From: Chitinophagales bacterium
GTDB lineage: Bacteria; Bacteroidota; Bacteroidia; Chitinophagales; LD1
Direction: 5' to 3'
NCBI GenBank assembly: GCA_025057415.1
Contig: JANWXI010000001.1
Span: 6,415-70,414, forward strand
DNA: 64,000 bases
Positions 3,132-63,548 of the stretch are shown one piece after another. Each line of letters begins with the position of its first letter. Within the stretch, counting starts at the first letter, position 1. The notes beneath the pieces were generated by a model. It was not told the origin of the DNA. It did not search any database and saw nothing but the letters and a program-made list of their open reading frames with translations. A program made the translations under genes and the position numbers.

Positions 3132-3204
3132 GGTGCGGTAGCTCAGTTGGTAGAGCAAAGGACTGAAAATCCTTGTGTCGGGGGTTCGATTCCCCCCCAC
3201 ACCA
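3132..3204 (+). tRNA. tRNA-Phe (anticodon GAA)
   Basis: Hand-folded 73-nt cloverleaf: acceptor GGTGCGG/CCACACC, D arm GCTC-AGTTGGTA-GAGC, anticodon stem-loop AAGGA-CTGAAAA-TCCTT, T arm GGGGG-TTCGATT-CCCCC. No encoded CCA. One C5-A68 acceptor mismatch. Confidence 0.9.
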
Positions 3205-3219
3205 CAAGAAAACACTCCT

Positions 3220-3256
3220 CCGTCTGAGAACATCCTCTTCTCAGACGGATTTTTTT
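3220..3256 (+). terminator. rho-independent terminator after tRNA-Phe
   Basis: Stem CCGTCTGAGA / TCTCAGACGG with a 9-nt loop, followed by A then T7 (3250-3256). Confidence 0.7.
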
Positions 3257-4731: not shown

Positions 4732-4941
4732 ATGAACCCCCGGCAACCCCGCTTCGCCAATGCCCTCAAATACTCCGGTCTGGGCTTCCAAATCATCGCC
4801 ACAGCGCTGCTGGGCTTCTTCATCGGCCACAAATGCGACCAATGGCTTGGTAACCACCAACCCTACCTAACCCTGCTCATCTCTGTGCTCTTCCTCGTAG
4901 CCGGTCTCTACCATGTCGTGAAAACCATATCAAAATCCTGA
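4732..4941 (+). CDS. AtpZ/AtpI-like small membrane protein
   Basis: 69 aa with two TM helices (YSGLGFQIIATALLGFFIGHKCDQWLG...LTLLISVLFLVAGLYHVV), typical of the AtpZ/AtpI family. Confidence 0.6.
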   Translation: MNPRQPRFANALKYSGLGFQIIATALLGFFIGHKCDQWLGNHQPYLTLLISVLFLVAGLYHVVKTISKS

Positions 4942-4944
4942 GAC

Positions 4945-5195
4945 GCCGCGCGCCGGCATAATTCCCTCGGGCGCCCCGCAATCCCTGGCTGATATACATT
5001 GCTGAGTTTTTGTTTTTGGGGGGTGCCCCCGCTGCCAAGCGCTGCAAGGCAGCGGGGTCGGGCTTGCTACGGGGTACGCAGCCGCTCCCGCCCCGCCCGC
5101 AATATCTTTAATTTTACATGGAGCGGGCGGGGCCGCTTCCCCCGCCCTTCTACGGCGGGCGGGGAGAAGCGCCCTCCGCATCCCTCACCCGGCTT
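4945..5195 (+). repeat. GC-rich multi-hairpin intergenic element, copy A (expanded variant)
   Basis: Core 5018-5192. It begins GGGGGTGCCCCCGCTGCCAAGCGCTGCAAGGCAGCGGGGTCGGGC and ends CCGCATCCCTCACCCGG, matching the reverse complement of copies B and C. The interior carries an 11-bp hairpin GCCCCGCCCGC...GCGGGCGGGGC. Confidence 0.8.
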
Positions 5196-5280
5196 GCGCT
5201 ACACCCCGCTACGCTCTCAAATGCAAAAAAACACCCCTAAAACTTGCTTTATAAAAACTCTTTATATATTCGTTTTTTAA

Positions 5281-6795
<1,515 letters not shown>

Positions 6796-12225: not shown

Positions 12226-12254
12226 AAAAAAAAAAGCCCCGCTATCAGCGGGGC
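12226..12254 (-). terminator. rho-independent terminator after the OmpA/TPR/PD40 gene
   Basis: Stem GCCCCGC / GCGGGGC with loop TATCA. On the minus strand it is followed by a T10 run (plus-strand A10 at 12226-12235). Confidence 0.75.
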
Positions 12255-12275
12255 AAAAAGTATTTATAAAATGAA

Positions 12276-25837: not shown

Positions 25838-27346
25838 TTACAATAAGGAATGGCTTATGTCCATGAGTTCTTTCATGATACGGGTGTCAGTTGAGAGGCG
25901 CGGGGGCTTATTTTGACCGCCGGTTTTGTTATGTTGTTTCATCCATGTATGGAAAGTACCGTTTTTTACGATATCAATTTTTAATGGTTGCAGGATAATA
26001 TCCTGGTGGCGCTTGGCATCGTAGTCGGAGTTGAGCTCGCGCATGTACTTATCGAGCAGTGTCGCAAAACGATGCATATCAGGGGGTAGTTTTTGAAACT
26101 CTACCACCCAGCGGTGGTAACCTTTGCCGGGTTCAGTAAAAACCGGCGCTACCGAGTATTCACCGGCAATGGCGCCGGATGCCTCGCAGGTGAGCGATAG
26201 GGCGCGGTCGGTGTGTTGTATCATTACCTCTTCACCAAAAGTATTGAGGGTTTGTAAAGTGCGGCCTACCCAGCGCAGGCGATAGGGTGAGCAGGATGTA
26301 AATTCCACTACATCACCCGTTTGGTAGCGCCACAACCCGCCGTTGGTGCTGATTACCATGGCGTATTTTTTACCTGTTTCCACATCGCGCAATGGCAGGG
26401 GAGTAACATTTTCCTTTTCGGTATTACCGGGTGTAAAGGGAATGAATTCATAAAAAATGCCACAATCGGTGTGTAACCACATATTGTCGCTCTCGGTGTC
26501 CTGAAAAGCAAAAAAACCTTCACTGGCGTTATAGGCATTGATGTAGCGTATGGGCTTGCCCACCAATTGTTCAAATGTTTTTTGGTAAGGTTCGAACGCC
26601 ATTCCACCGTGTACGAACAATTCTAAGCGGGGCCATACATCCATGATGCAATCTTTGCGACTTATCTCCAACACACGACGCAGAATTATCAATATCCAGG
26701 TGGGAACGCCCGAAAGCGTGGTGATGTTTTCATGCACGATGTGCCGGGCAATGGTTTCAACTTTTTGCTCCCAGTTGGGCATGGTAGCCACCCGGCGCGA
26801 AGGTTCTCTGAAATACTGCAGCCATGCCGGCATGCGGTGCAGCAACACTGCGCTCACGTCACCTGCCGGGCACCTGCCCACTCTATCACTTAAATGCCCG
26901 CCCGAGATGAATGACTTACCTGCAAATACTGCAGCATCGCGGTAGCGATGGTAATAGACAGCCATGAGGTCTTTGCCGCCTTTTACATGGTTCAGATAAA
27001 TGGCTTCATCAGTAAGCGGTATAAATTTACTGCGGTTGGTGGTGCCGCTGCTTTTGGCAAAATAGTGCACCCGCCCGGGCCAAAGCACATCTTTTTTTCC
27101 GTTACCGATTTCCTCTATGTAGGGCTTGTAATCCTCATATACACTCAGCGGTACGGTATTGGCATAATCGCTGTAATTAATTATTTTGCTGAAATGGTGG
27201 GTTTTACCAAAAGTTGTGTTTGCTGCTCTGTGTGTGAGGTAACGCAGGCAGTTTTCCTGCTCTATGATTGCTTGTGTTACAGAGCGTTTGATACGGGGTA
27301 TGCGAGCGCTCAGGTAGGCGCGCATCAGCGTGTTGAGACAGCGCAT
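25838..27346 (-). CDS. GH3 (auxin-responsive promoter) family acyl-adenylate-forming enzyme homologue
   Basis: About 500 aa with GH3-family blocks (FGKTHHF..I..Y.DY...VPL..YEDYKPYIE, FAKSSGTT, YNASEGFFAFQD, GGLWRYQTGDVVEF) as seen in bacterial GH3 homologues. Confidence 0.8.
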   Translation of the reverse strand: MRCLNTLMRAYLSARIPRIKRSVTQAIIEQENCLRYLTHRAANTTFGKTHHFSKIINYSDYANTVPLSVYEDYKPYIEEIGNGKKDVLWPGRVHYFAKSSGTTNRSKFIPLTDEAIYLNHVKGGKDLMAVYYHRYRDAAVFAGKSFISGGHLSDRVGRCPAGDVSAVLLHRMPAWLQYFREPSRRVATMPNWEQKVETIARHIVHENITTLSGVPTWILIILRRVLEISRKDCIMDVWPRLELFVHGGMAFEPYQKTFEQLVGKPIRYINAYNASEGFFAFQDTESDNMWLHTDCGIFYEFIPFTPGNTEKENVTPLPLRDVETGKKYAMVISTNGGLWRYQTGDVVEFTSCSPYRLRWVGRTLQTLNTFGEEVMIQHTDRALSLTCEASGAIAGEYSVAPVFTEPGKGYHRWVVEFQKLPPDMHRFATLLDKYMRELNSDYDAKRHQDIILQPLKIDIVKNGTFHTWMKQHNKTGGQNKPPRLSTDTRIMKELMDISHSLL

Positions 27347-27663
27347 GGCAGTGACGAGGCAAAGGTAAGTTACTGAGGGATAATGTGTGGAGCTGATACA
27401 ACAAGAGAATTAGCCGTGATGGTGAAACAGGCAAAAATAAATGGTAATCTTTCAGTGGTCAGAAGAGTACTCACAACGCGCGTTTTTGTATAAATGTTTT
27501 GCAGTGATGCGTGCAGCAGGGTGTGCATATAGAATAGCAATGAAATATGAAGGATTGAATGCAGAACTGTTAGAAAATTGTTTATTTGAATGGGTTTGTA
27601 ACGAGAGAGGTGCAAGTGTAAATTGCAGGGATAAAGCGGCTGTACAGAGTTAGCAGGCGACAG

Positions 27664-27841
27664 CCGGGTGAGGGATGCAAGCGGAAAGCCCGCAGCCCGC
27701 GCCCGCGCTAAATGCGCGGGCGCGGCGAGGACTTGGAGCGGGTCAGCCCGACCCTGCTGCCTTGCAGCGCTTGGCAGCAGGGGCACCCCCTCCAATAAAC
27801 ATTACAAAAATTTTATATACAATTTGTGACAAGCCCGGGAA
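27664..27841 (-). repeat. GC-rich multi-hairpin intergenic element, copy B
   Basis: Core 27664-27790 aligns with copy C over nearly its whole length. It has a 12-bp central hairpin CCGCGCCCGCGC-TAAAT-GCGCGGGCGCGG and a 10-bp hairpin CCCTGCTGCC...GGCAGCAGGG. It starts 51 nt after the collagen-like gene stop. Confidence 0.8.
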
Positions 27842-29635
27842 TTATTTTTTGTGCTGCTCGTCCAGTTGTTTTTGGAGGTTATCAATTTGCAGTTGCTGCT
27901 GCTTGATGGCTTCAACTAAAATGGGGATGAGTTCGATGTAACTGACGGTTTTGAGAAGTTCGTGGCGCATTTCCTGTGTGCTGCCGCGTTGCGTTTCGTT
28001 GATATGGGGGATGTATTTCTCTTTGACCAACTCGGGGAGTAGTTTTTCAATTTCCTGCGCGATGAATCCATAGTTGGTGCCTTGTTTCAGCCCCAGGTCT
28101 GCGTAGGCGGGGTCATCGGTGCGGTGCTCATAAGTGACACCGCGAAGTTGCCGGATGATGTCAATCGCATTATCAATATTTTTAATATTTTTTTTGATGC
28201 GGATGTCGGAAGCAACGCCAAAGAAGCCGGTGTAGCCCAGGTCGTTTTGGAAGAGTCCGCCCCATCCGGTATTGGCGCCGGCGCCTGTGCGGGCGCCTGT
28301 GACACCGTGTAGTGTGAGGTTGAGTGCAAGACCGCGAACGCCTGCGCTGTTGCTGTTTTGTGCCGCGCCCGATTCACCTTGCACACCGGCAAATACGGTA
28401 TTGGCATTGCCCTGTATGGCTCCATACACACCCGAGCCGTTGAATGAAGAGTATCCATTGAAAGCCCACGGGAAAGCGGCATTGCTCACGGCATTTGCCA
28501 GGTCACCGGCGAGCACAGTGTTGGTAGTGCCCCAGAAGAATTCTCCGATGTTGCTCATGCGCCCGCGCACGATACCGTTAGCGATAAAGTCAACGTGGTT
28601 ATTTGAAAGGGTGCCGAAATTGCCGGTGGTGTTGAGGGAGTTACCGCCCACTAACCATGCCTGCTGGGATGTGGTTTGCGGAGCGCCGGAGCCGCTTGTG
28701 GCATTGATGGTGAGCGTACCGTTTGGATTAAAAGTAGGTTGTGTGAGTGTCCATGTGGGTCCGGTGGGGCCTGTAGGTCCGGTATCGCCCGTGGCACCTG
28801 CGGGTCCTTGTGCGCCGGTAGGGCCTTGCGCACCGGTAGGGCCAGTGGCTCCCTGCGGTCCGGTGGGTCCTTGTGCGCCTGTAGGTCCGGTATCACCTTG
28901 CGGACCTGTAGGACCTTGCGCACCTGTGGGGCCTGTGTTGCCCTGCGGGCCTGTGGGTCCTTGTGCGCCGGTAGCACCTGTAGGACCTTGCGCGCCGGTG
29001 GGGCCTTGTGCTCCTGTGGGGCCTGTGTTGCCCTGTGGGCCTGTGGGTCCTTGTGCGCCTGTGGCACCAGTGGGACCTTGCGCACCAGTGGGACCTTGCG
29101 CGCCTGTGGGGCCTGTGTTGCCCTGCGGGCCTGTGGGGCCTTGTGCTCCGGTAGCGCCGGTGGGACCTTGCGCGCCGGTAGCACCGGTGGGACCTTGCGG
29201 GCCAGTGGGTCCTTGTGCGCCTGTGGCACCAGTGGGACCTTGCGTGCCGGTGGGACCTTGAGGTCCTGTAGCACCGGTGGGGCCTTGCGCACCAGTGGGC
29301 CCTTGGAGTCCTGTAGCACCGGTAGGACCTAGAGCGCCGGTTGGCCCTTGAGGTCCTGCAGGACCAGCGTTACACAGCGATTTCCACTGTGAACCATCAA
29401 AGTAGTGAAAACAATCTACATCTGTATCATATACCAGTAGTCCTCTGGCGGGTGAAGCAATAGCAATGCGTTGTGCTGATGTCATGCGGGGAACGAGTAT
29501 TCCCTTGTCAGTAGCGCTCAACTCCAGCAGGGAACTTGGGTGGGGTGTAGCGATACCGATACCCACGTTATTTTGTGCCTGTAACAAGAGCGGGAACATA
29601 CCCCATAATAAAAGCATGCGTACCTGTAAACTCAT
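27842..29635 (-). CDS. secreted collagen-like triple-helix repeat protein with C-terminal tail-fibre intramolecular chaperone (peptidase S74-type) domain
   Basis: Signal peptide [21 protein letters not shown]. 68 uninterrupted G-X-Y triplets (residues 91-294). The C-terminus [13 protein letters not shown]...LRGVTYEH...[16 protein letters not shown] plus a terminal coiled coil matches the endosialidase/tail-fibre auto-chaperone pattern. Confidence 0.85.
28754..29365 (-). repeat. collagen-like G-X-Y coding repeat (68 triplets), including three 90-bp tandem units
   Basis: The motif CTGTGGGGCCTGTGTTGCCCTG(C/T)GGGCCTGTGGG recurs at 28923, 29013 and 29103 (period 90 bp, i.e. 30 aa). The rest is degenerate GGN-CCN/GCN-ACN/CAR periodicity. 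Confidence 0.9.
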
Positions 29636-36597: not shown

Positions 36598-36627
36598 ATA
36601 AAAAAGCACGCGAAATATTCGCGTGCT
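36598..36627 (-). terminator. rho-independent terminator after the interrupted gene
   Basis: 10-bp stem AGCACGCGAA / TTCGCGTGCT with loop ATA. On the minus strand it is followed by a T-run (plus-strand A-run 36600-36605). Confidence 0.7.
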
Positions 36628-36671
36628 TAATGTTTCCCGGCAAGAGTTTTGCTTGCGATGTACCGAAAGCG

Positions 36672-40710: not shown

Positions 40711-40740
40711 AAACGCGCCGCAATCACGGCGCGTTTTTAT
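40711..40740 (+). terminator. rho-independent terminator after the amidase gene
   Basis: Stem AAACGCGCCG / CGGCGCGTTT with loop CAATCA, followed by T-rich sequence. Confidence 0.75.
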
Positions 40741-40745
40741 TTCAG

Positions 40746-40818
40746 AGCGGCAGACGGGTCTCGAACCCGCAACCTTTAGCTTGGGAAGCTAAAGCTCTAC
40801 CTATTGAGCTACTGCCGC
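40746..40818 (-). tRNA. tRNA-Gly (anticodon CCC)
   Basis: Hand-folded 73-nt cloverleaf on the minus strand: acceptor GCGGCAG/CTGCCGC, anticodon stem-loop TTAGC-TTCCCAA-GCTAA, T arm GCGGG-TTCGAGA-CCCGT, discriminator U. No encoded CCA. Confidence 0.9.
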
Positions 40819-42963: not shown

Positions 42964-44661
42964 ATGAAAAAACTAAAACTATTCTTTCTTGCTATTACCG
43001 GATGCAATTTAATATTTGCGCAAACCCCGTTTGAGCGAGTTTACACCATACTCAACACAAAGTGTCAAAATGCCAATTGCCACAGCTCAACCTCTAACGA
43101 CTTTCCGAAATTTGACGGTAACTTAGATGATGTTTACGCCGCTATTTACAATGTTCCCCCGCAAAACACAACGGCAAAAAACAAGTTTGAGAAACTAGTT
43201 AAACCTGGTCACCCTTACATGAGCTTCTTGCTTCGCAAAATTGCCGGTGCCGGCTTTGACACCGACCTGGCTCTTGAAAACAGCGAGGGCCAATTGATGA
43301 AAGACATCAACGGCAACGTTCTTTCAAACAAAGAGATTGAGTTCATCAGGCAGTGGATAATGTTCAGCGCTAAGAAGAACTACGGCAACAACGACTTTAA
43401 ACCTGATTGGCAGTTAGTGAGTGATTACTACGACAATCCTGTCAACCCCTTTCTCCCTAAACCGCCTAAACCGGCACCCGGTACCGGCTTGCAGTTTCGG
43501 ATGGGGCCGATCTTCTTACCGGCTACCGGAGAGATAGAGCAGGAGTGGTTGCTGCAGCAGGAAGTGAATTTTCCCTATCTGCCGGAGGTGTATCGTATTG
43601 ATGGTTTCATGAACCAGCAATCGCATCATTTCCTTTTGTTCAAATTTGAGGACTCTTCGGCTGTGGATAGAAACAGCAACGACCCTATGGGCATGCAAAA
43701 AGTTTCTATCACCGGCGGTAGCACTTCGTTTGACGGAGACAAATTTCTCACAAGCGCCTGGCAGGATGATGCTGAGTTTCTGTTGCCTCAAAATACAGCG
43801 CTCTTCTGGGAGCAGAAGACCTACCTGGATATGAATTACCATATAAAAAACTACAATGCCACTGGTGTGTTGCCGTGTGACTTCTACTACAACATTTATT
43901 TCCGTCCGCGCAATCCCAATACAATTGAAATGAAAGCACACCTGGCGAATGACGTTACTTTGTTCCTGCCCCAGGGTGTGCAATCCAACGACTTTGAAGA
44001 CCCCGCCAATTCCCTTATCACTCCTGAATGGCGGTACTTGTGGCTTATTACATCTCACACACACAAATACGGCATTGACTTTGACATCTTTATTAAAGAT
44101 AGCTTAGGCAATATTGGTGAACAGATTTATGAGGGCTTCATGAATTATACCACAGGCGAGATGAGTAATTACTACGACTGGGAGCACCCTTCCGTTCGGT
44201 ACTTTCCTGATTTTCTGCCTGTAAAATTTGGACGTCATGGCACAAAACGAGCGGGTCTGTTATCGCGGGCAAAATGGAACATTCAGGAACCCTTTGTCAC
44301 TTTTGGCTTTACTACCGATGACGAGATGCACCTCTTCTACTACTTCTACACCAGTGAAAACCCGCTTGCCACCTCTTCCGTCAACAATCCCGATGCCAGC
44401 AAGCTCTCATTGCAGGTTTATCCCAACCCGATGACCGGACATGGCACAGTGATGTACCATTTAGAAAAAGACGCAAAAAAGGTTTCTATCCGCATTACCG
44501 ACTTAACAGGTAAGGTAATTGCATCCTTCGATGAAACATTCCAACCGGCCGGCTTGCAACAACAGCCACTTGACTTGCAGGGTATAGCCGATGGCGTATA
44601 TCTGGTACATGTAAATGTTGACGGAAACCTGTACACCAGCAAATTTATAGTAGCTAAGTAA
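42964..44661 (+). CDS. T9SS type A cargo with PHM/DBH-like (copper type II ascorbate-dependent monooxygenase-like) histidine/methionine signature
   Basis: Signal peptide. SHHFLLF (H221, H222), NYHIKNY (H293), SHTHKYG (H365, H367), TDDEMHLFYYFY (M455). C-terminal LQVYPNPMTGHGTV...GVYLVHVNVDGNLYTSKFIVAK sorting domain. The CDS itself is solid; the function is inferred. Confidence 0.7.
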   Translation: MKKLKLFFLAITGCNLIFAQTPFERVYTILNTKCQNANCHSSTSNDFPKFDGNLDDVYAAIYNVPPQNTTAKNKFEKLVKPGHPYMSFLLRKIAGAGFDTDLALENSEGQLMKDINGNVLSNKEIEFIRQWIMFSAKKNYGNNDFKPDWQLVSDYYDNPVNPFLPKPPKPAPGTGLQFRMGPIFLPATGEIEQEWLLQQEVNFPYLPEVYRIDGFMNQQSHHFLLFKFEDSSAVDRNSNDPMGMQKVSITGGSTSFDGDKFLTSAWQDDAEFLLPQNTALFWEQKTYLDMNYHIKNYNATGVLPCDFYYNIYFRPRNPNTIEMKAHLANDVTLFLPQGVQSNDFEDPANSLITPEWRYLWLITSHTHKYGIDFDIFIKDSLGNIGEQIYEGFMNYTTGEMSNYYDWEHPSVRYFPDFLPVKFGRHGTKRAGLLSRAKWNIQEPFVTFGFTTDDEMHLFYYFYTSENPLATSSVNNPDASKLSLQVYPNPMTGHGTVMYHLEKDAKKVSIRITDLTGKVIASFDETFQPAGLQQQPLDLQGIADGVYLVHVNVDGNLYTSKFIVAK

Positions 44662-44692
44662 TCTCGCTACAATCGCAAAACTACCCGATTGA

Positions 44693-44724
44693 AAATGCCA
44701 GCCCTGAGGTTGGCATTTGTTTTA
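44693..44724 (+). terminator. rho-independent terminator after the PHM-like gene
   Basis: Stem AATGCCA / TGGCATT with a 10-nt loop, followed by TGTTTT. Confidence 0.7.
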
Positions 44725-44761: not shown

Positions 44762-45124
44762 TTATTCAATAAATTTTTTACGGGCATGTTCATATACAGG
44801 CACAGCTTCGCGGTACGATTTAAACCATAAAATACGATGAAGCGGGGGCTGATACTGTAGCGACTCATCGCTGAGGGCAGGGTCATCAGCCCGGCAGTGA
44901 AGCGCAATGCCGCTCAGAATACTCACGGGCACGGCTTGCAATACCACACAGAAGTCGTCTCCGTGTTTTTCGAGCGAGAGCAATAATCCTTTGCCGTTGT
45001 TTTCGCTTTGCCGGATAATTCTTGTCATGATGGTTTGCTTTAGCAAAAGCAAACATACCTGTGCAGTACGCAATGGAAATGCGCAGAAAAAATAACTCCA
45101 AACATCATCCGTAATCAGGGACAC
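44762..45124 (-). CDS. small hypothetical protein downstream of the helicase (start uncertain: 45124 or ATG at 45028)
   Basis: ORF only; no motif recognised. It sits 10 nt (long form) or 105 nt (88-aa form, MTRIIRQ...) after the helicase stop, on the same strand. Confidence 0.35.
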   Translation of the reverse strand: MSLITDDVWSYFFCAFPLRTAQVCLLLLKQTIMTRIIRQSENNGKGLLLSLEKHGDDFCVVLQAVPVSILSGIALHCRADDPALSDESLQYQPPLHRILWFKSYREAVPVYEHARKKFIE

Positions 45125-55496: not shown

Positions 55497-56729
55497 TTAC
55501 CGGATGGCAACCCGCTCATGACGCCTGATGAGCAGGTAGTACCATGCCACGCCTGCTATATAGAGCGCCACGGTGATGAAGATGATGTTGCAATAAGCCA
55601 CACCCGCTTCGCGTAATACGGAGAACGCCTTGGCGCTCACAAACCAACAGCCGCTCCAGATACTTGCGTTGAGTGCAGAGAGGAGTTGACGATTGCGCTC
55701 GCCAACGAATTGCATGGTAAGCTCGCTCGTCATAGGCCCCGCCATATTCATAAAGGGCTGGCGCAATACAAAAGTGATGACAGCCACCCAATACCCGTAA
55801 GGCGTATGTCGGTACCATTCGGTGGTTGCCATCATAAACAGCAGTATTATGGCTACCGATTGCACGCCCGTGATGGCCACCTGATAGCCGTATCGTCTTT
55901 TTACCGAGGGGATGATGAGCGATGAAAATGCCACCAGTGTAAACGCCACCGAGTTGATGATAGAAAACTCGTTTGCAGGCATGCCGTGCACATCGTGAAA
56001 AAACAAATTGATAACCGGAATGGTGAAGCCGGCGCCCAGCGCTATCAGAAAGGTGGGGATTACTGCCTGCAATATGAGCGGCCAGTCGTACTCGGAAAGC
56101 GAAACGGAAACGCGCCGGCGCGCAGGTAGCGAGTGGTGCTCTGCATCGGGCAGCATGTGCACAAACCATACCGCCCCGAAGCCCAAAGTTGAAAAGATTA
56201 CCAGCAGAGCGGTAGTGTTGAAAGAGGGATGCAGGAGCGGGAGCGAATATGCCAACAACCCCGTGAAAATGGTGGTAAAGTTGGCTGCCGAGAAAAACAA
56301 GGTGATGCTCTCTGTCAGGTACGCTTTGTCGCCATTGCTCAGTACATAGGGCATAACGAGTATCTGCACGAGCGAAAAACTCACGCCCCATGCCGCCATG
56401 AGCAGGCGTATCATTTCGGTATAGTGCAGGTGTATGCTGGCGATGAGCAGCAGCGCCACAAGGGGAGATGTAACCGCTCCTGCCATGAGGAATGGTTTCA
56501 GCCGTCGGCCCCTGGCGATTATTGCCAGCGGTACAGCACAGAGTAGCACTGTGAGGTAGCGGTTGCCTACCATGCTGGCAATTTCGTAATCTTTGAAGCC
56601 GTGCTCCAGCATAAGGTAGTTGATGAGCAGGGTGAAAGCCGAGTTGATGATTTGTATGCATACGTCTGCCAGCATCAGGTGGTGAATGTGGCGCGGAACG
56701 GAGGCGTAGCGATACAGCAGAGATTTCAT
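55497..56729 (-). CDS. MFS transporter
   Basis: About 12 TM helices. The ATG at 56729 (MKSLLYRY...) is preferred over 56774. Confidence 0.8.
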   Translation of the reverse strand: MKSLLYRYASVPRHIHHLMLADVCIQIINSAFTLLINYLMLEHGFKDYEIASMVGNRYLTVLLCAVPLAIIARGRRLKPFLMAGAVTSPLVALLLIASIHLHYTEMIRLLMAAWGVSFSLVQILVMPYVLSNGDKAYLTESITLFFSAANFTTIFTGLLAYSLPLLHPSFNTTALLVIFSTLGFGAVWFVHMLPDAEHHSLPARRRVSVSLSEYDWPLILQAVIPTFLIALGAGFTIPVINLFFHDVHGMPANEFSIINSVAFTLVAFSSLIIPSVKRRYGYQVAITGVQSVAIILLFMMATTEWYRHTPYGYWVAVITFVLRQPFMNMAGPMTSELTMQFVGERNRQLLSALNASIWSGCWFVSAKAFSVLREAGVAYCNIIFITVALYIAGVAWYYLLIRRHERVAIR

Positions 56730-56836: not shown

Positions 56837-57034
56837 CGGGTGAGGGATGCGAGCGGAAAGCCCGCAGCCGCGCCCGCGCCAGAGGCGCGGCGAGGACTTG
56901 GAGCGGGTCAGCCCGACCCCGCTGCCTTGCAGCGCTTGGCAGCGGGGGCACCCCCAAATAAATAATTAAAAAAACATATATATTTTATTTAGTATATTTA
57001 AGCGCGTTGTGCCGGAGGGTTGTGGGGCGGTAAT
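56837..57034 (-). repeat. GC-rich multi-hairpin intergenic element, copy C
   Basis: Core 56837-56955 (CGGGTGAGGGATGCGAGCGGAAAGCCCGCAGC...GCTGCCTTGCAGCGCTTGGCAGCGGGGGCACCCCC). It starts 79 nt after the stop of the 57035..58507 gene. A second conserved block (CCGCCCCACAACCCTCCGGC in gene sense) abuts the stop codon. Confidence 0.8.
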
Positions 57035-58507
57035 TCAGGGGAGTTCTACGGCACCGATGTCGTATTGGTTGCGGCGCGGGCGAGGTGTGCCGTAAATATC
57101 GAACGGCAGGCCGGACGGGGAAGCGTCAATGAGGGGCGATACGTAGCCGATGCTGTCAGAAGGAGTGAAGTTGCCTTTTTCGGGCGATTTGAAGCGCGGG
57201 TCGGTATTGAAGAGGAGTTGCTGGCTTTTGTTGCTGTAGAGGGCGAGTGTGTCGCTGCGCGTTTTGAGGAGGCAGTGAGAGAAGTTGTTGTCGAAGTCGC
57301 TGGTGTTTACGCCGTTGATGTTGGCGAAGAGGATTTCGTTTTGGAGCGAGCCATAGATGACGCAGTTTTCGAAAGTGGTTTTGAGGGGTTGCGGGTAGGC
57401 GGTTTGGTTGTTGTCCACCACGGCGTTGTTGAGCAGGAGGACTTCTTTTTGGTGATTGACGTAGCGCGAGCCGGTATTGAAGAAGGTGCAGTTGCGAAAC
57501 GTGTATTCACCACCCAGCCAGAGTTTCACCAGGTTGTCACCGGCAGCGTACAGGATGGTGTTTTCGGCATCTATGAGTGCGTTGAAACCCTGCAGTGCGT
57601 TGAACTGGGTGTTTTTGACAATCGTGTTACGCACCGTTACCTGCGGGCGGAGCGAAGCGCCCTGAAACTGCTGAATGTTGGTGAACTCAACGCTGCCGCC
57701 GGCGTAGATGCCGTATTTGCTTTCGTCAATCACGCAGTGGTCAAACAAGCCCTGCGGAGCACAGGCGCTGTTGCGCAAAAAAACAATGCCGAACCATTGC
57801 CCGGGCTTATCGTTATAGTACGGCTCTAAACGGGCGCCCTGAAATACGATGCTATCGGACCAGGTGTTGGCTACGGCATGCAGCGTCCCCTCGATGAACA
57901 GCGCTGAATTGCCGGCAAAAAATATTTTGCAGCCGGGCTGAATGTGCAGCGCCGCGCCGCACCGCACGTACACGCCGGGGATGGTGTCTTTGGCAACGAT
58001 TACGTGGGGCAGGTCGTTGCTCCAAACGGCTGTACCGCTTTTGATTTCTTCACCATAGTGGAAGTGTGCGTTTTGGCCAAATGCCTGCAGGTGTACGGTG
58101 CGCTGCTGCCCGTCAGTTACAAATGAAACATCATCAATAATCACAAACGGAGTGGCAGCCGAAGTGGGATTAACGGTTACTTCCACAAATACGTAGAGCG
58201 AGTCGCGCGGAGGGATTTCTACATTCGTAAACACATCGCCTTGCACACCGTCAACATTGATGCGAAACTGATTGCCGACCAGCCGCATGAGGCGTATCTC
58301 CTCAATGCGCAGGGCGCGGCTGCTGCGGTTGTAAACTTTGAAATAGCGCGTGGTGGAACCGAGTGAAGTGAACACGGTGTCGAACGTAAGCGTATCGGTG
58401 CTGAACTGCATGCCTGCAGCGCCGGCTCCATCTTTGCGACAGCCGACATGGCATACTACGAGCAGGGCGAAGCAACACAACAGGCAAACCGTGATGATAA
58501 ATCTCAT
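57035..58507 (-). CDS. lipoprotein with right-handed parallel beta-helix-like repeats, function unknown
   Basis: Lipobox-like VVCHVGC. Repeated N-x-[IV]-x-x-N/F motifs (VRNTIVKNTQFNAL, FRNCTFFNTG, FENCVIYGSL) suggest a pectate-lyase-type fold. Tentative. Confidence 0.6.
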   Translation of the reverse strand: MRFIITVCLLCCFALLVVCHVGCRKDGAGAAGMQFSTDTLTFDTVFTSLGSTTRYFKVYNRSSRALRIEEIRLMRLVGNQFRINVDGVQGDVFTNVEIPPRDSLYVFVEVTVNPTSAATPFVIIDDVSFVTDGQQRTVHLQAFGQNAHFHYGEEIKSGTAVWSNDLPHVIVAKDTIPGVYVRCGAALHIQPGCKIFFAGNSALFIEGTLHAVANTWSDSIVFQGARLEPYYNDKPGQWFGIVFLRNSACAPQGLFDHCVIDESKYGIYAGGSVEFTNIQQFQGASLRPQVTVRNTIVKNTQFNALQGFNALIDAENTILYAAGDNLVKLWLGGEYTFRNCTFFNTGSRYVNHQKEVLLLNNAVVDNNQTAYPQPLKTTFENCVIYGSLQNEILFANINGVNTSDFDNNFSHCLLKTRSDTLALYSNKSQQLLFNTDPRFKSPEKGNFTPSDSIGYVSPLIDASPSGLPFDIYGTPRPRRNQYDIGAVELP

Positions 58508-60431: not shown

Positions 60432-62957
60432 TTACTGTTTTACTATCCTTCGGGTTACTTCTTTCCCATTTACCCCTCGCATCTTAACCATGTAAACTCC
60501 CGGGGATAAATGCTTCAAGGATAAAATTGCGCCCTGGCCTATGCCGCTTTGTTGTACCACTGCCTTGCCCGTTATGTCTATTACACGTATCTCATGTATA
60601 GCGCCAGATGGCCATGCTATATGGAGATTGTCCTCACACGGTACCGGATATAACCATACTTTGGGCTCTGGTTCTTCTGCTAATGCTACTACTAACTGAG
60701 CAATTATGGTGGCTGTGTTGGTAATGATTGGAGCATTGAAATCAAAGTATATTCCTGCCCGATTGGGAATGCTTTGGTTTAAGCTGAGCGGTTGCAGCGG
60801 CTTAATTCTGAACTGCACAAACCCGATAGAACCTTCGGGATTGCTGGCACTATCGGGCAACATGATGTTACTAAAGAAAAACTTTACCACGCTATTCCTC
60901 AGTTCATAGGTACATTTATGACTGTAACCTAGTAATTCAAATGTGCTTGGATCGAGCAACGCGCTTAATGTATCTATCAGTTTTATATTGAATGCCGGTG
61001 CGCTGCCCGTGTTTTGAAAATAGATGGTGTAGGTAAGCCATCCATCGTACCCCGGCTGCACCGTATTGGGGTACACATCTTTACGGTTGGGGTCGTATGA
61101 GTTTACCACATCATAGCACCAACTGTATGTATTGTTTGCCGGGTTGTTGTCTCCGGTTACGGGTGTTACAGATATATTTACACATACCTGATCGCCCGCT
61201 TGAGCCGTGGTATCGGTGGTGAATAACAAACCAATAGCCCCGCTCATCAAGGTTGAAAAATCGGCAATGGAATAAGTGAACGAATTGCCTGAAATACTGG
61301 TTGGCAAAATAGCTCCGCTAGGCGCCCCCGCGTATTTTACCGGTCCGCTTACTTGTACCAAAATTTGTCCTGAAACATTCTGCGCACATGCCAACTGATA
61401 AAAAATATTACTGATATCTCCGGCATTTATGGATAGCGTGTGTGTTTGCCCGGGGAATACCCAGCCGGCAGTATTTACAGATTGAACCCCAACATCAAAA
61501 CCGGGTTTGCAAGCCAAAAGAAAGTCCACACTGTCAGTAAGCGCCCCTGCCTGAAAGGTTACACTTTGCTGAATGGGGGCGTTGCAGGCGATAATGTAAG
61601 GTTTATTGGCGGTATCCACCTTTAGCGTATAATTACCACTAACCAACCCCTGATGAAACATGTAAACACCGTTAACGAAAGTATTGGTTATCCCCCAAAA
61701 ATTGTTGTTGCTATCATAAATGGCCACTTCTACATTAGCTACTTTACTATCTGCATTACCATCATATTGACAATTACCATTGGCATCATAAAGCGCTGTG
61801 CCAAGGATGCCTGTTCCCTCCGGGCACCCGTTCGGATTTCCAGTGGTACATATAGGGTATGCTAAGTGGTTAGCATCCATAGCTTGAACATAATTTGGCA
61901 GACATGCAATAGGATTCGGGAGTAAAGAAATTGAGCCATTACTGATGTGAGGCAAACGAGGAAAACAAGTGATTAGATTATCACCACACAGTAAAATAGC
62001 CATCGTATCCGGTAAATACGGAAGACCGGATAGTTGATTGTTGGAGCAACCTAAAACATCGAGAGTACTTGGTAAAGCCGGCAAATTGGTAAGTTGATTG
62101 TTAGAACAATATAACTTCCAAAGACCGTCTGGTAAAGAAGGTAAACTGGTTAATTGATTAAAGTTGCAGAACAACTGTTGTAGACTATCAGACAAAGCCG
62201 GCAAACTGGTTAATTGATTGTAGTCGCAGTATAAATTCTCAAGACCAATGGGCAGGTTCGGCAAATTGGTTATTTGATTGTTAGAACAATCTAATGTCTT
62301 CAGAAGGCCGGGCAAAGCCGGCAAACTGGTTAATTGATTGTTGTAACAACTTAAATAAACAATATTAACGGGTAAATTCGGTAAACCGGCTAGTTGATTG
62401 TTGGAACAATCCAGCGTAATTAAGCTATTGGGTAAAACCGGCAAACTGGTTAGTTGATTGTTGTTACACTTTATTCTCTCAAGGCTGCCGGGCAACGATG
62501 GTAAGTTAGTTAATTGATTATAGGAACAAATCAAGTCCAAAAGATAAGCAGGCAGAGTTGGTAAATTTGTTAATTGATTGTTGTTACAATATAACTTCTG
62601 CATACTGCCGGGCAATGCAGGTAAATTAGTCAATTGGTTACCGGAACAATCTAACCACCAAAGAGTACTTGGCAAAACCGGTAAACTGGTCAATTGATTG
62701 GAGGAACATATCAAGACAGATAAATTTGAAAACGCCTGAATTCCCTCTAACGATTGAATGCCCAGGTTGCTAACATTAATTGTTCCACTGTAGGCACTTG
62801 CACAGGGTACGTTGATGGAGTCAGGGTAAGGCATACAGCTTGAAAAGTTGGCTTGCAAATAAGCCCGGAATGCCGGGTCAGGTACATACAGGTTTTGGGC
62901 TTGTAAGTGTATTTGTACACTGGCGAGCACCATCAATGCAAGGGTATATTTTCGCAT
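60432..62957 (-). CDS. T9SS type A cargo: 13 x 20-residue leucine-rich repeats + beta-sandwich (DUF11/CARDB-like) region + sorting domain
   Basis: Signal peptide MRKYTLALMVLASVQIHLQAQ. Repeats follow L..L.C..NQLT.LP.LP.. . C-terminus VWLYPVPCEDNLHIAW...GVYMVKM...RRIVKQ. An alternative ATG lies at 62972. Confidence 0.85.
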   Translation of the reverse strand: MRKYTLALMVLASVQIHLQAQNLYVPDPAFRAYLQANFSSCMPYPDSINVPCASAYSGTINVSNLGIQSLEGIQAFSNLSVLICSSNQLTSLPVLPSTLWWLDCSGNQLTNLPALPGSMQKLYCNNNQLTNLPTLPAYLLDLICSYNQLTNLPSLPGSLERIKCNNNQLTSLPVLPNSLITLDCSNNQLAGLPNLPVNIVYLSCYNNQLTSLPALPGLLKTLDCSNNQITNLPNLPIGLENLYCDYNQLTSLPALSDSLQQLFCNFNQLTSLPSLPDGLWKLYCSNNQLTNLPALPSTLDVLGCSNNQLSGLPYLPDTMAILLCGDNLITCFPRLPHISNGSISLLPNPIACLPNYVQAMDANHLAYPICTTGNPNGCPEGTGILGTALYDANGNCQYDGNADSKVANVEVAIYDSNNNFWGITNTFVNGVYMFHQGLVSGNYTLKVDTANKPYIIACNAPIQQSVTFQAGALTDSVDFLLACKPGFDVGVQSVNTAGWVFPGQTHTLSINAGDISNIFYQLACAQNVSGQILVQVSGPVKYAGAPSGAILPTSISGNSFTYSIADFSTLMSGAIGLLFTTDTTAQAGDQVCVNISVTPVTGDNNPANNTYSWCYDVVNSYDPNRKDVYPNTVQPGYDGWLTYTIYFQNTGSAPAFNIKLIDTLSALLDPSTFELLGYSHKCTYELRNSVVKFFFSNIMLPDSASNPEGSIGFVQFRIKPLQPLSLNQSIPNRAGIYFDFNAPIITNTATIIAQLVVALAEEPEPKVWLYPVPCEDNLHIAWPSGAIHEIRVIDITGKAVVQQSGIGQGAILSLKHLSPGVYMVKMRGVNGKEVTRRIVKQ
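61944..62723 (-). repeat. tandem 60-bp coding repeats (13 LRR units)
   Basis: GGTAAACTGGT(T/C)AATTGATTG-type cores recur every 60 bp on the plus strand. They translate on the minus strand to NQLT(S/N)LP(A/S/V)LP. Confidence 0.9.
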
Positions 62958-63474
62958 AAAATTTGTTTCCATAGCTCTTAAAATTACCTACTTGTAGTTC
63001 AAATTTAAAAAAATACAATTACTACATAAACCGCTCAAAAATTACGTAAACCCAATATTTACATTTGATATGGAGGCTCTACCCAATTAAGGTTACTTAT
63101 AAAAACGAAACCAATTACACTAAAAACTCCAACATGTTAATTCTTCTTTGATTTATGTTGTATTCGCTCAGGTTACACATAATACTTTTTTACTGATATG
63201 GCATGATTATTTAACTGACAAATCAATCAAATCTGAAATTTCAAATGGCAGTCACTACAACTAAGTATCATTGACAATTATGATATTAAATAATTTACTA
63301 ATCTGTTTGCGATATCGTATGCACTTCACCATCACTGCACTCTACCAGGTAAAACACAAACCCCTAATTAGTTGAGATTACATCAAAACGCTGTGCCGGT
63401 AAGTGTGCTGTAATACCGGCGCAGGCAAACAAAACAGCCGAAAAAACAAACGCCCCGAAAAGGGCTTGTAACAG

Positions 63475-63548
<74 letters not shown>

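Follow-up and report, generated by a model that had tools for sequence, protein, structure and literature searches.

A GC-rich repeat in seven extragenic copies

The DNA analysed here (the window) is a stretch of 64,000 nucleotides of contig JANWXI010000001.1 from a Chitinophagales bacterium (assembly GCA_025057415.1), in which three intergenic spacers each carry a copy of a GC-rich, multi-hairpin element. Copy A (4958–5194, + strand) lies between an AtpZ-like gene (4732–4941, +) and glpK (5299–6795, +), copy B (27844–27661, − strand) between a collagen-like/Peptidase_S74 gene (27842–29635, −) and a GH3-family gene (25838–27346, −), and copy C (57037–56837, − strand) between the gene of a 490-aa DUF5123-like lipoprotein (57035–58507, −) and an MFS transporter gene (55497–56729, −). 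All three are placed between co-directional genes and are sense to them, the AtpZ-like, collagen-like and lipoprotein genes being the upstream neighbours. The elements have a GC content of about 70% (up to 83% in hairpin stems) versus 47% for the genome, and A, B and C are the sole intergenic GC islands of the 47% GC window.

These three copies had been noticed in a preliminary description, and their repetition goes far beyond chance. For the 23-mer GCTGCCAAGCGCTGCAAGGCAGC, exactly three occurrences were counted in the window and none in 100 shuffles, while the 14-nt 3' motif GCATCCCTCACCCG is found three times, always exactly, in a search that permitted up to two mismatches (0.22 occurrences expected at that setting). 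On the sense strand, the consensus of A, B and C reads GGGGGTGCCCC(C/T)GCTGCCAAGCGCTGCAAGGCAGC(G/A)GGGTCGGGCT and ends with GCATCCCTCACCCG. The core starts 76–77, 51 and 79 nt past the upstream stop codon in A, B and C, respectively, in agreement with the distances given earlier.

The flanks of the window genes were added from contig JAVQYR010000001.1 of a Chitinophagales metagenome-assembled genome (MAG; GCA_033583875.1), on which the record coordinate equals the window coordinate plus 87,213. The readable stretch after this extension, including two loci fetched from the same contig (L032 and L033), spans window positions -7949 to 68507 (76,457 nt). Four further members were recovered in this way, bringing the family to seven (A–G) in 76.4 kb of one contig, or about one copy per 11 kb where examined. 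Copy E (L033 1351–1565, +) directly follows the NifU stop codon, with a 48-nt AT-rich spacer and an A-type core. Copy F (L033 7095–6903, −) is a full A/E-type copy; its spacer of 780 nt separates two + strand genes, one for an acyl-CoA dehydrogenase and one PpiD-like. In the same spacer, 70 nt after the dehydrogenase stop codon, lies the solo hairpin G (L033 6547–6593, +), which consists of GGGGTGCTCACTGCC-AAGCGATGTAA-GGCAGCGGGCACCCC. Copy D (L032 3085–2925 on the minus strand of the locus, equivalent to window 65423–65583, +) occupies a convergent spacer, starting from the stop codon of a UDG gene. This deletion derivative lacks P1 and P2 (see below). It retains a left block and the AT spacer together with GGGTCGGCC, the small hairpin of its subtype (at 17/17 nt) and a diverged 3' tail. 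Neither nhmmer nor covariance model R1, which scores copies B and C at 125 and 115 bits, found members beyond A–G in the 212 kb scanned.

The repeats measure 130–250 nt; the unit has a core of 120–180 nt in addition to the spacer and left block. Their 5' cores are identical over 46/46 positions between A and C and over 44/46 between A and B, and the identity of B to C amounts to 90% over 126 nt. The middle of copy A differs from that of B and C and is longer. At the 3' end, E is identical to A over 26/26 nt and F to A over 23/23 nt. All seven members are extragenic in a 76-kb stretch with a coding share of 86.5% (p ~ 8e-7). We conclude that they form a real, previously undescribed family of GC-rich hairpin repeats of one uncultured Chitinophagales bacterium.

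Modular architecture

The aligned copies are mosaics of five parts. The left block (T[A/G]A(A)TT.CC ... CCCC.CAA.CCCT..GGC) varies in length, with its longest form in A and no more than CCGGC in E, and is followed by an AT-rich spacer of 26–55 nt, mostly with ATATA and with a T-run at its end. Next comes a near-invariant 5' module consisting of GGGGGTGC (the 5' strand of helix P1), the 10-bp P2 hairpin and GGGTCGGGCT. A variable middle then leads to the 3' tail CCGCATCCCTCACCCG, often followed by GCT, the GCATCCCT segment of which pairs with GGGGGTGC to close P1. Two subtypes are distinguished: type I (A, E and F) has a weak helix and a P4 hairpin with a 20-nt AT-rich loop, and type II (B, C and D) has CGGGCTGACCCG, a P4 with a 3–5-nt loop and the hairpin GCGGGCTTTCCGC. 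The second, looser block that had been reported near the stop codons does exist and corresponds to the left block: ATAATTCCC matches at 9/9 positions in A and B, GCCCC..AA..CC..GGC is common to A and C, and a constant GGC stands just 5' of the spacer in A–E.

In copy A, the left block ATAATTCCCTCGGGCGCCCCGCAATCCCTGGC (4958–4989, +) begins 17 nt past the AtpZ-like stop codon (4939–4941). The AT-rich spacer (4990–5017) has a terminal T-run and no perfect Bacteroidota -7 box. It is followed by the 5' module (5018–5064) with the P1 strand GGGGGGTGC, P2 (5027–5057; a 10-bp stem and an 11-nt loop) and TCGGGCT. P4 (5090–5133) has an 11-bp GC stem with a 22-nt AT-rich loop and shows compensatory changes relative to E and F. 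An extra GC hairpin (5136–5169) is unique to this copy, which ends with the 3' tail CCGCATCCCTCACCCGGCT (5176–5194), GCATCCCT being the P1 3' strand.

Copy B (− strand) opens with TAATTCCCGGGC (27833–27844), the TAA of which is the stop codon of the collagen-like gene. In its AT-rich spacer (27791–27832) the repeat match reaches 32 nt upstream of the core. The type II core (27661–27790) comprises the P1 strand, P2 (27782–27752), P4 (27725–27697) and the small hairpin (27693–27681), and ends with the 3' tail (27678–27665) plus GGCT. Its P2 stem has a T–A pair where A and C have C–G. In copy C (− strand), the left block TGAATTACCGCCCCACAACCCTCCGGC (57011–57037) includes the native TGA of the lipoprotein gene, and the AT-rich spacer (56956–57010) begins with ACAACGCGC; CCGGCACAAC is common to C and D. 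Its type II core (56837–56955) contains the P1 strand, P2 (56947–56917), P4 (approximately 56891–56873), the small hairpin (56865–56853) and the 3' tail (56850–56837).

No reading frame is conserved among the copies, and the lengths of their indels are not divisible by three. Searching with a concatenated six-frame peptide query gave no spurious protein products of the element, and none of the ten open reading frames that overlap copies is present in the protein collection by exact look-up. Conserved ends, an exchangeable interior and deletion or solo derivatives are together the pattern of non-autonomous repeat families.

Two perfect GC-rich hairpins without T-tracts adjoin copies E and G/F, at L033 1597–1630 (window -6353 to -6320) and L033 6814–6846 (window -1136 to -1104). 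A stem of 15–16 bp carries a cUUCGg loop in one of them, and a stem of 13 bp a GGC loop in the other. Neither shows sequence kinship with the family, but both may represent additional modules in clusters like the bacterial interspersed mosaic elements (BIMEs) discussed below.

Secondary structure

RNAalifold applied to A, E, F, B and C gives a consensus of 38 pairs with 97.8% of cells paired. Compensatory changes are seen at six pairs, to which P2 contributes two, P4 three and the weak helix one. When the pairing partners are slid as a control, 0–1 compensatory pairs result, and the observed values are reached by 0–1 of 500 shuffles. The P2 and P4 hairpins are kept by selection, the folding molecule being RNA or single-stranded DNA. 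P1 is invariant across the copies and hence gives no covariation signal; in copy G it takes the perfect form GGGGTGC/GCACCCC.

All non-Watson–Crick pairs on the sense strand (about eight independent positions) are G.U and none is A.C (p ~ 0.008 if the positions are independent). This gives a hint of folding by the sense strand, be it RNA or single-stranded DNA. The minimum free energies of the sense and antisense strands are equivalent and favour neither.

Position and orientation relative to genes

Along the contig the members are ordered E+, G+, F−, A+, B−, C− and D+. The orientation equals that of the upstream gene in six of the seven members and in five of the six long copies (one-sided p = 0.06–0.11), a bias that we regard as suggestive; a single replication direction accounts for at most 4/7. 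It had been proposed that the element always lies in transcript sense. This holds for A, B and C, but F is antisense to both of its neighbours, so that sense orientation is not a rule.

The left boundary lies 0–48 nt from the upstream stop codon, and in four copies the left block starts at the stop codon itself (stop/following sequence TAA/TTCCC in B, TGA/ATTACC in C, TAA/TCCC in D and TGA/CCGGC in E). A rough Fisher combination of the probabilities that a copy would land so near the stop in its pre-insertion spacer gives p = 0.004–0.01; the figure is indicative only, as its per-spacer probabilities are our own estimates and avoidance of downstream promoters would weaken it. The stop codon is native for C, D and E, the three copies covered by this check together with A. 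Homologues of the lipoprotein upstream of C align to residue 488–490 of 490 and to within 1–3 residues of their own ends, the UDG upstream of D aligns through its last residue with solved UDGs, and the NifU domain upstream of E is complete; the AtpZ upstream of A has the same length in a relative. AtpZ, the collagen-like protein, the lipoprotein, UDG and NifU are unrelated to each other.

Regulation of the downstream gene was considered and rejected. The genes downstream of A, B and C (glpK, GH3 and MFS) are unrelated. Copy D is followed by no co-directional gene; its spacer is convergent, which excludes a role as the 5' element of a gene downstream. In a relative that lacks the element, the stretch immediately before glpK (about 5236–5275) is conserved, which places copy A upstream of glpK's own promoter region.

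The absence of a U-tract had been taken to mean that the element is not a canonical terminator, and this is upheld. No hairpin with a T-tract is present at A, B or C, the sequence after the 3' tails is not T-rich, and the upstream genes of the copies are without a hairpin plus T-tract. Canonical hairpin and T-tract terminators do stand behind other genes of the window (12240–12275, 36604–36628, 40711–40736 and about 44680–44720, the last being bidirectional between convergent genes at 42964–44661 and 44762–45124), from which it follows that the organism uses ordinary intrinsic terminators.

Boundaries and the AtpZ flank of a relative

The triplets that adjoin the AT spacer on its 5' side and CACCCG on its 3' side are GCT and GCT in A, B and E, GCA and GCA in D and possibly AAT and AAT in F; those of C are mismatched. 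A recurring triplet fits target duplication, target preference or element termini alike. As terminal inverted repeats, the core ends offer only GGGTG...CACCC (5 nt), and the left block and 3' tail are direct repeats. In several copies the left block resembles the copy's own 3' tail (CCGCAATCCCT--GGCT versus CCGCATCCCTCACCCGGCT in A, CACCGCAAT versus CACCCGAAT in F and CCGGCA versus CCGGCA in D). The earlier statement that inverted ends, target duplication and a transposase are all missing therefore needs qualification: the 76 kb of contig contain no transposase, but junction repeats, ambiguous as they are, do exist.

In the relative GCA_016787045.1, the motif TTAATCGCCCCGAAACACCTGGC (L025 17640–17662) is found 29 nt after the AtpZ stop codon. 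It is orthologous to the left block of A and comes without spacer or GC core. It is the only left-block-like motif in about 85 kb of the relatives' sequence (overlapping loci included), and a left-block profile gave no further solo motif in about 160 kb scanned. The motif could be a target that resembles an element end, a remnant, or a sign that A is the founder locus and that its upstream flank was carried into daughter copies.

Gene order breaks exactly at copy A (window 4732–6795 compared with L025 10001–17776). The source has M23, bactofilin and AtpZ genes followed by glpK, and in the relative a 270-aa gene comes next after AtpZ, with glpK 6 kb away beside a Fic gene. Copy A therefore sits at a rearrangement junction.

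Distribution

Among some 15 billion proteins the nearest GlpK is only 87% identical, which marks the lineage as poorly sampled. Three relatives with 86–87% GlpK identity contributed about 65 kb of non-redundant sequence (L025–L031 and L036), in which blastn, nhmmer and the covariance model found no copy and no comparable GC island was seen. An exact search for a 19-mer of the P2 top in 185,579 species-representative genomes (GTDB) returned 18 matches, and a 21-mer of the same region had five matches in JGI metagenomes and none in IMG/VR. The matches in the JGI and species-genome scans are all due to chance and fall inside coding sequences, for example a Prevotella gene; such exact-word scans miss diverged copies, since E has two mismatches in the 19-mer and F a different loop. 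Comparison of copy C with plasmids and phages by blastn gave no match. In the sequence searchable in these ways no copy was found outside the species.

No match to a named RNA family was seen in Rfam 15: within the window the three tRNAs alone reach a gathering threshold, and permissive scans of A and C gave sub-threshold chance matches, the best being radC with 19 bits against a threshold of 40. On the basis of the anatomy and the Rfam result, coding potential, a repeat of a diversity-generating retroelement, a group II intron fragment, a tRNA-like element and an attC site were rejected. No transposase, integrase, recombinase, REP-associated tyrosine transposase (RAYT; REP, repetitive extragenic palindrome) or Y1 transposase is encoded in the 76 kb of contig, and a literature search found no described counterpart in Bacteroidota.

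Relation to known systems

Much is known of small structured repeats from Proteobacteria and Neisseria, whereas descriptions from Bacteroidota are scarce. With the REP/BIME/REPIN sequences of Proteobacteria, which are mobilized by RAYTs, the family shares its extragenic GC-rich imperfect palindromes in dispersed copies (here about one per 11 kb of the stretch read), mosaic clusters of alternating orientation (G+ and F− in one spacer), a preference for 3' flanks and co-directional or convergent spacers, and stems that are kept by compensatory change. The classical role of REP/BIME sequences is that of a 3' stem-loop which stabilizes the upstream mRNA. Unlike the 20–40-nt REP palindrome, the unit here is a 130–250-nt composite of different hairpins with an AT-rich leader; P2 (31 nt) and P4 (29–45 nt) are only parts of it, and G is the sole solo hairpin. 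The family also differs in its host phylum, in its marked association with orientation and stop codons and in the lack of a RAYT gene in the stretch read. The foot of the REP palindrome carries a conserved GTAG or CGTC tetranucleotide (PMC3733652). P2 and P4 have neither of these tags beside them in any of the copies.

Sequences like MITEs (miniature transposable elements with inverted repeats), such as Correia/NEMIS of Neisseria, the enterobacterial ERIC/IRU, RU-2 and RU-3 and the Coxiella QMITEs, are comparable in that they are 100–250 nt long and non-coding and have internal-deletion variants (represented here by the derivatives D and G); co-transcription with neighbouring genes and folding into long RNA hairpins would be further shared traits. 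Orientation-dependent effects on upstream mRNA are documented for ERIC. The present family differs from these sequences in having no terminal inverted repeats beyond GGGTG/CACCC and no unambiguous target duplication, in its multi-branch fold instead of one long hairpin and in showing no sequence similarity to the collections searched.

The palindrome-associated transposable elements (PATEs) derived from IS200/IS605 likewise lack inverted termini and clear duplications, and they share conserved subterminal hairpins with a variable interior, possibly strand-specific folding and a constant short sequence (here GGC) 5' of the left end. In our family, unlike PATEs, orientation follows the genes and not replication, the left and right hairpins are unrelated and no TnpA or TnpB gene was seen in the contig sequence. 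The copies resemble intrinsic (Rho-independent) terminators in standing directly behind operon-final genes without another terminator and in their strong GC stems, but no U-tract follows any stem and the T-run precedes the first hairpin. Integron attC sites also start at or next to the preceding stop codon, in gene-sense orientation, with conserved ends and a variable structured middle. The repeat, however, has no R''/R' (RYYYAAC/GTTRRRY) pair, the best matches being mismatched (GCACAAC and GTAAATA in C), and its end repeats are direct and not inverted. Its copies lie 5–30 kb apart among housekeeping genes, with neither a cassette array nor an integrase seen.

Nature of the repeat family

On balance we read the element as a member of a lineage-restricted, dispersed, non-coding, multi-hairpin repeat family that is a functional analogue of REP/BIME or MITE-like (ERIC, Correia) sequences, with a probability of about 0.55. 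Its closest likeness is to small repeats of the REP/MITE type known from other bacteria, and not to a new kind of RNA regulator. The antisense copy F, the derivatives D and G, the swapped middles, the 46/46 identity and the lack of copies in the three relatives and the public collections scanned are hallmarks of a young repeat family.

Such a repeat would be spread by a trans-acting enzyme encoded elsewhere that most likely recognizes the conserved ends of the repeat (the AT spacer with the P1/P2 module and the 3' tail CCGCATCCCTCACCCG), the middle being exchangeable. Copies would be retained only outside genes, mainly in 3' flanks and mostly co-oriented with the upstream gene, where they are harmless or helpful. 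Because of this placement, the sense strand would be transcribed at the end of the mRNA. There the P1–P2–P4 fold probably forms a 3' stem-loop barrier that either protects against exonucleases or aids termination in place of a canonical terminator.

Several points weigh against this reading. No transposase, integrase or RAYT accompanies the repeat in the 76 kb, and convincing terminal inverted repeats are missing apart from GGGTG/CACCC. The junction repeats GCT/GCT and GCA/GCA also fit element ends or a target preference; a left-block-like motif stands even in the relative's AtpZ flank, and an empty site with alignable flanks was not available. The sample consists of seven copies from one contig. 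Finally, random insertion followed by selection does not predict zero-spacing abutment to stop codons in four copies (native ones in C, D and E). We consider the abutment to be the one odd feature of an otherwise known kind of repeat. Were it to hold genome-wide, it would indicate an unusual targeting or selection mechanism.

The family points to the recent acquisition or evolution of a small structured repeat in an uncultured Chitinophagales lineage. It marks operon ends that lack canonical terminators and may thereby shape mRNA 3' ends and operon polarity.

Alternative explanations

The preliminary description had favoured an element acting at the RNA level in the 3' untranslated region (UTR) over a DNA repeat. 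In its strict form, a dedicated cis-acting RNA would be selected locus by locus to terminate, stabilize or process the upstream transcript, and its repetition would be secondary. Much of what has been described above suits this idea, namely the sense orientation of five of the six long copies, the abutment of B, C, D and E to stop codons, the convergent spacer of D, the compensatory pairs, the restriction of sense-strand wobbles to G.U and the cUUCGg loop, on the sense strand, of the hairpin beside copy E. We nevertheless think it unlikely. Of the full copies, F runs antisense to the gene on either side, the genes upstream of the copies have no relation to one another, relatives with the same genes yielded no copy and the two strands fold with equivalent energies. 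The 46/46 identity of otherwise divergent copies points to recent copying and not to long-term selection at each locus. A DNA repeat and a 3' UTR RNA are mutually compatible, and the original proposal is supported in part.

We are similarly doubtful about a single-stranded DNA element moved by an HUH/Y1 transposase, either as REPIN/RAYT or as an IS200/IS605-derived PATE, which would have its hairpins recognized on one DNA strand, insert beside a short target such as CCGGC and have no RNA function. Orientation (+ + − + − − +) tracks the local gene direction in 6/7 cases and one replication direction in at most 4/7, the GTAG/CGTC tags are absent, the unit of 130–250 nt exceeds the 20–40 nt of a REP, and the 76 kb hold no Y1 transposase gene. 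These observations are to be weighed against conserved hairpin-bearing ends with a variable middle, the lack of inverted termini and clear duplications, strand-specific G.T wobbles, the constant GGC just 5' of the spacer in A–E and the inverted arrangement of G and F within one spacer, all of which speak for such an element.

Less likely still is a mobile 3' UTR module aimed at stop-codon boundaries, with its own AU-rich leader and sense RNA fold, that was copied, along with a portion of the flank upstream, from a founder on the 3' side of AtpZ (copy A), for example by a transcript-based or rolling-circle process. To our knowledge, a transposable 'terminator/stabilizer cassette' that targets stop codons has no precedent.

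It is improbable that the copies are small RNA genes transcribed independently of the upstream gene from a promoter in the AT-rich spacer. An AT-rich region with ATATA and a T-run does stand directly 5' of the invariant G-rich start in every long copy, and the orphan copy F would make sense in this way. The spacer length, however, ranges between 26 and about 55 nt, a perfect Bacteroidota -7 box (TAnnTTTG) is missing from every copy, matches with one mismatch fall at inconsistent positions, there is no sigma-70-like site and no terminator follows the structure.

Products of site-specific recombination are very unlikely. In such products the left block and 3' tail would be direct repeats of the attL/attR kind, with an unoccupied attB in the relative's AtpZ flank. 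The resemblance of the left block to the copy's own 3' tail in A, F and D and the left-block-like motif that stands alone at the orthologous place in the relative speak for this. The similarities, however, are short and contain indels, E has only CCGGC, a recombinase gene is missing from the vicinity and about 160 kb yielded no further unoccupied motif.

An assembly artefact, in which high-GC reads of foreign origin were built into a contig of the 47% GC MAG, can be dismissed almost entirely, because seven junction-specific copies occur in one contig and the Logan assembly of another sample (SRR15826902) independently reproduces the junction between the 3' tail of copy A and the region upstream of glpK, with a synonymous single-nucleotide polymorphism in glpK.

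Other features

The Logan contig from this other sample of the same species (L019) has its position 1 at window 5170, inside copy A. The segment common to A, E and F at the contig start is 23–26 nt long, shorter than k-1 = 30. The start could reflect a repeat-induced break from unseen copies or a drop in coverage in the GC-rich hairpins. The repeat may break short-read assemblies of this organism, although it is not a demonstrated cause of this particular contig start.

The three tRNA genes of the window lie at 3132–3204 (+), 40746–40818 (−) and 63475–63548 (−), and the first is followed by a strong terminator (3219–3249). The other GC-rich island of the window is a dense 9/18/27-nt periodic repeat at 28697–29371, which encodes Gly-X-Y units within the collagen-like/Peptidase_S74 gene. 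Eleven tandem 60-nt units that are 60–71% identical occupy 61946–62699 within the gene (60432–62972, −) of an 846-aa protein with LRR, DUF7619 and T9SS (type IX secretion system) sorting regions.

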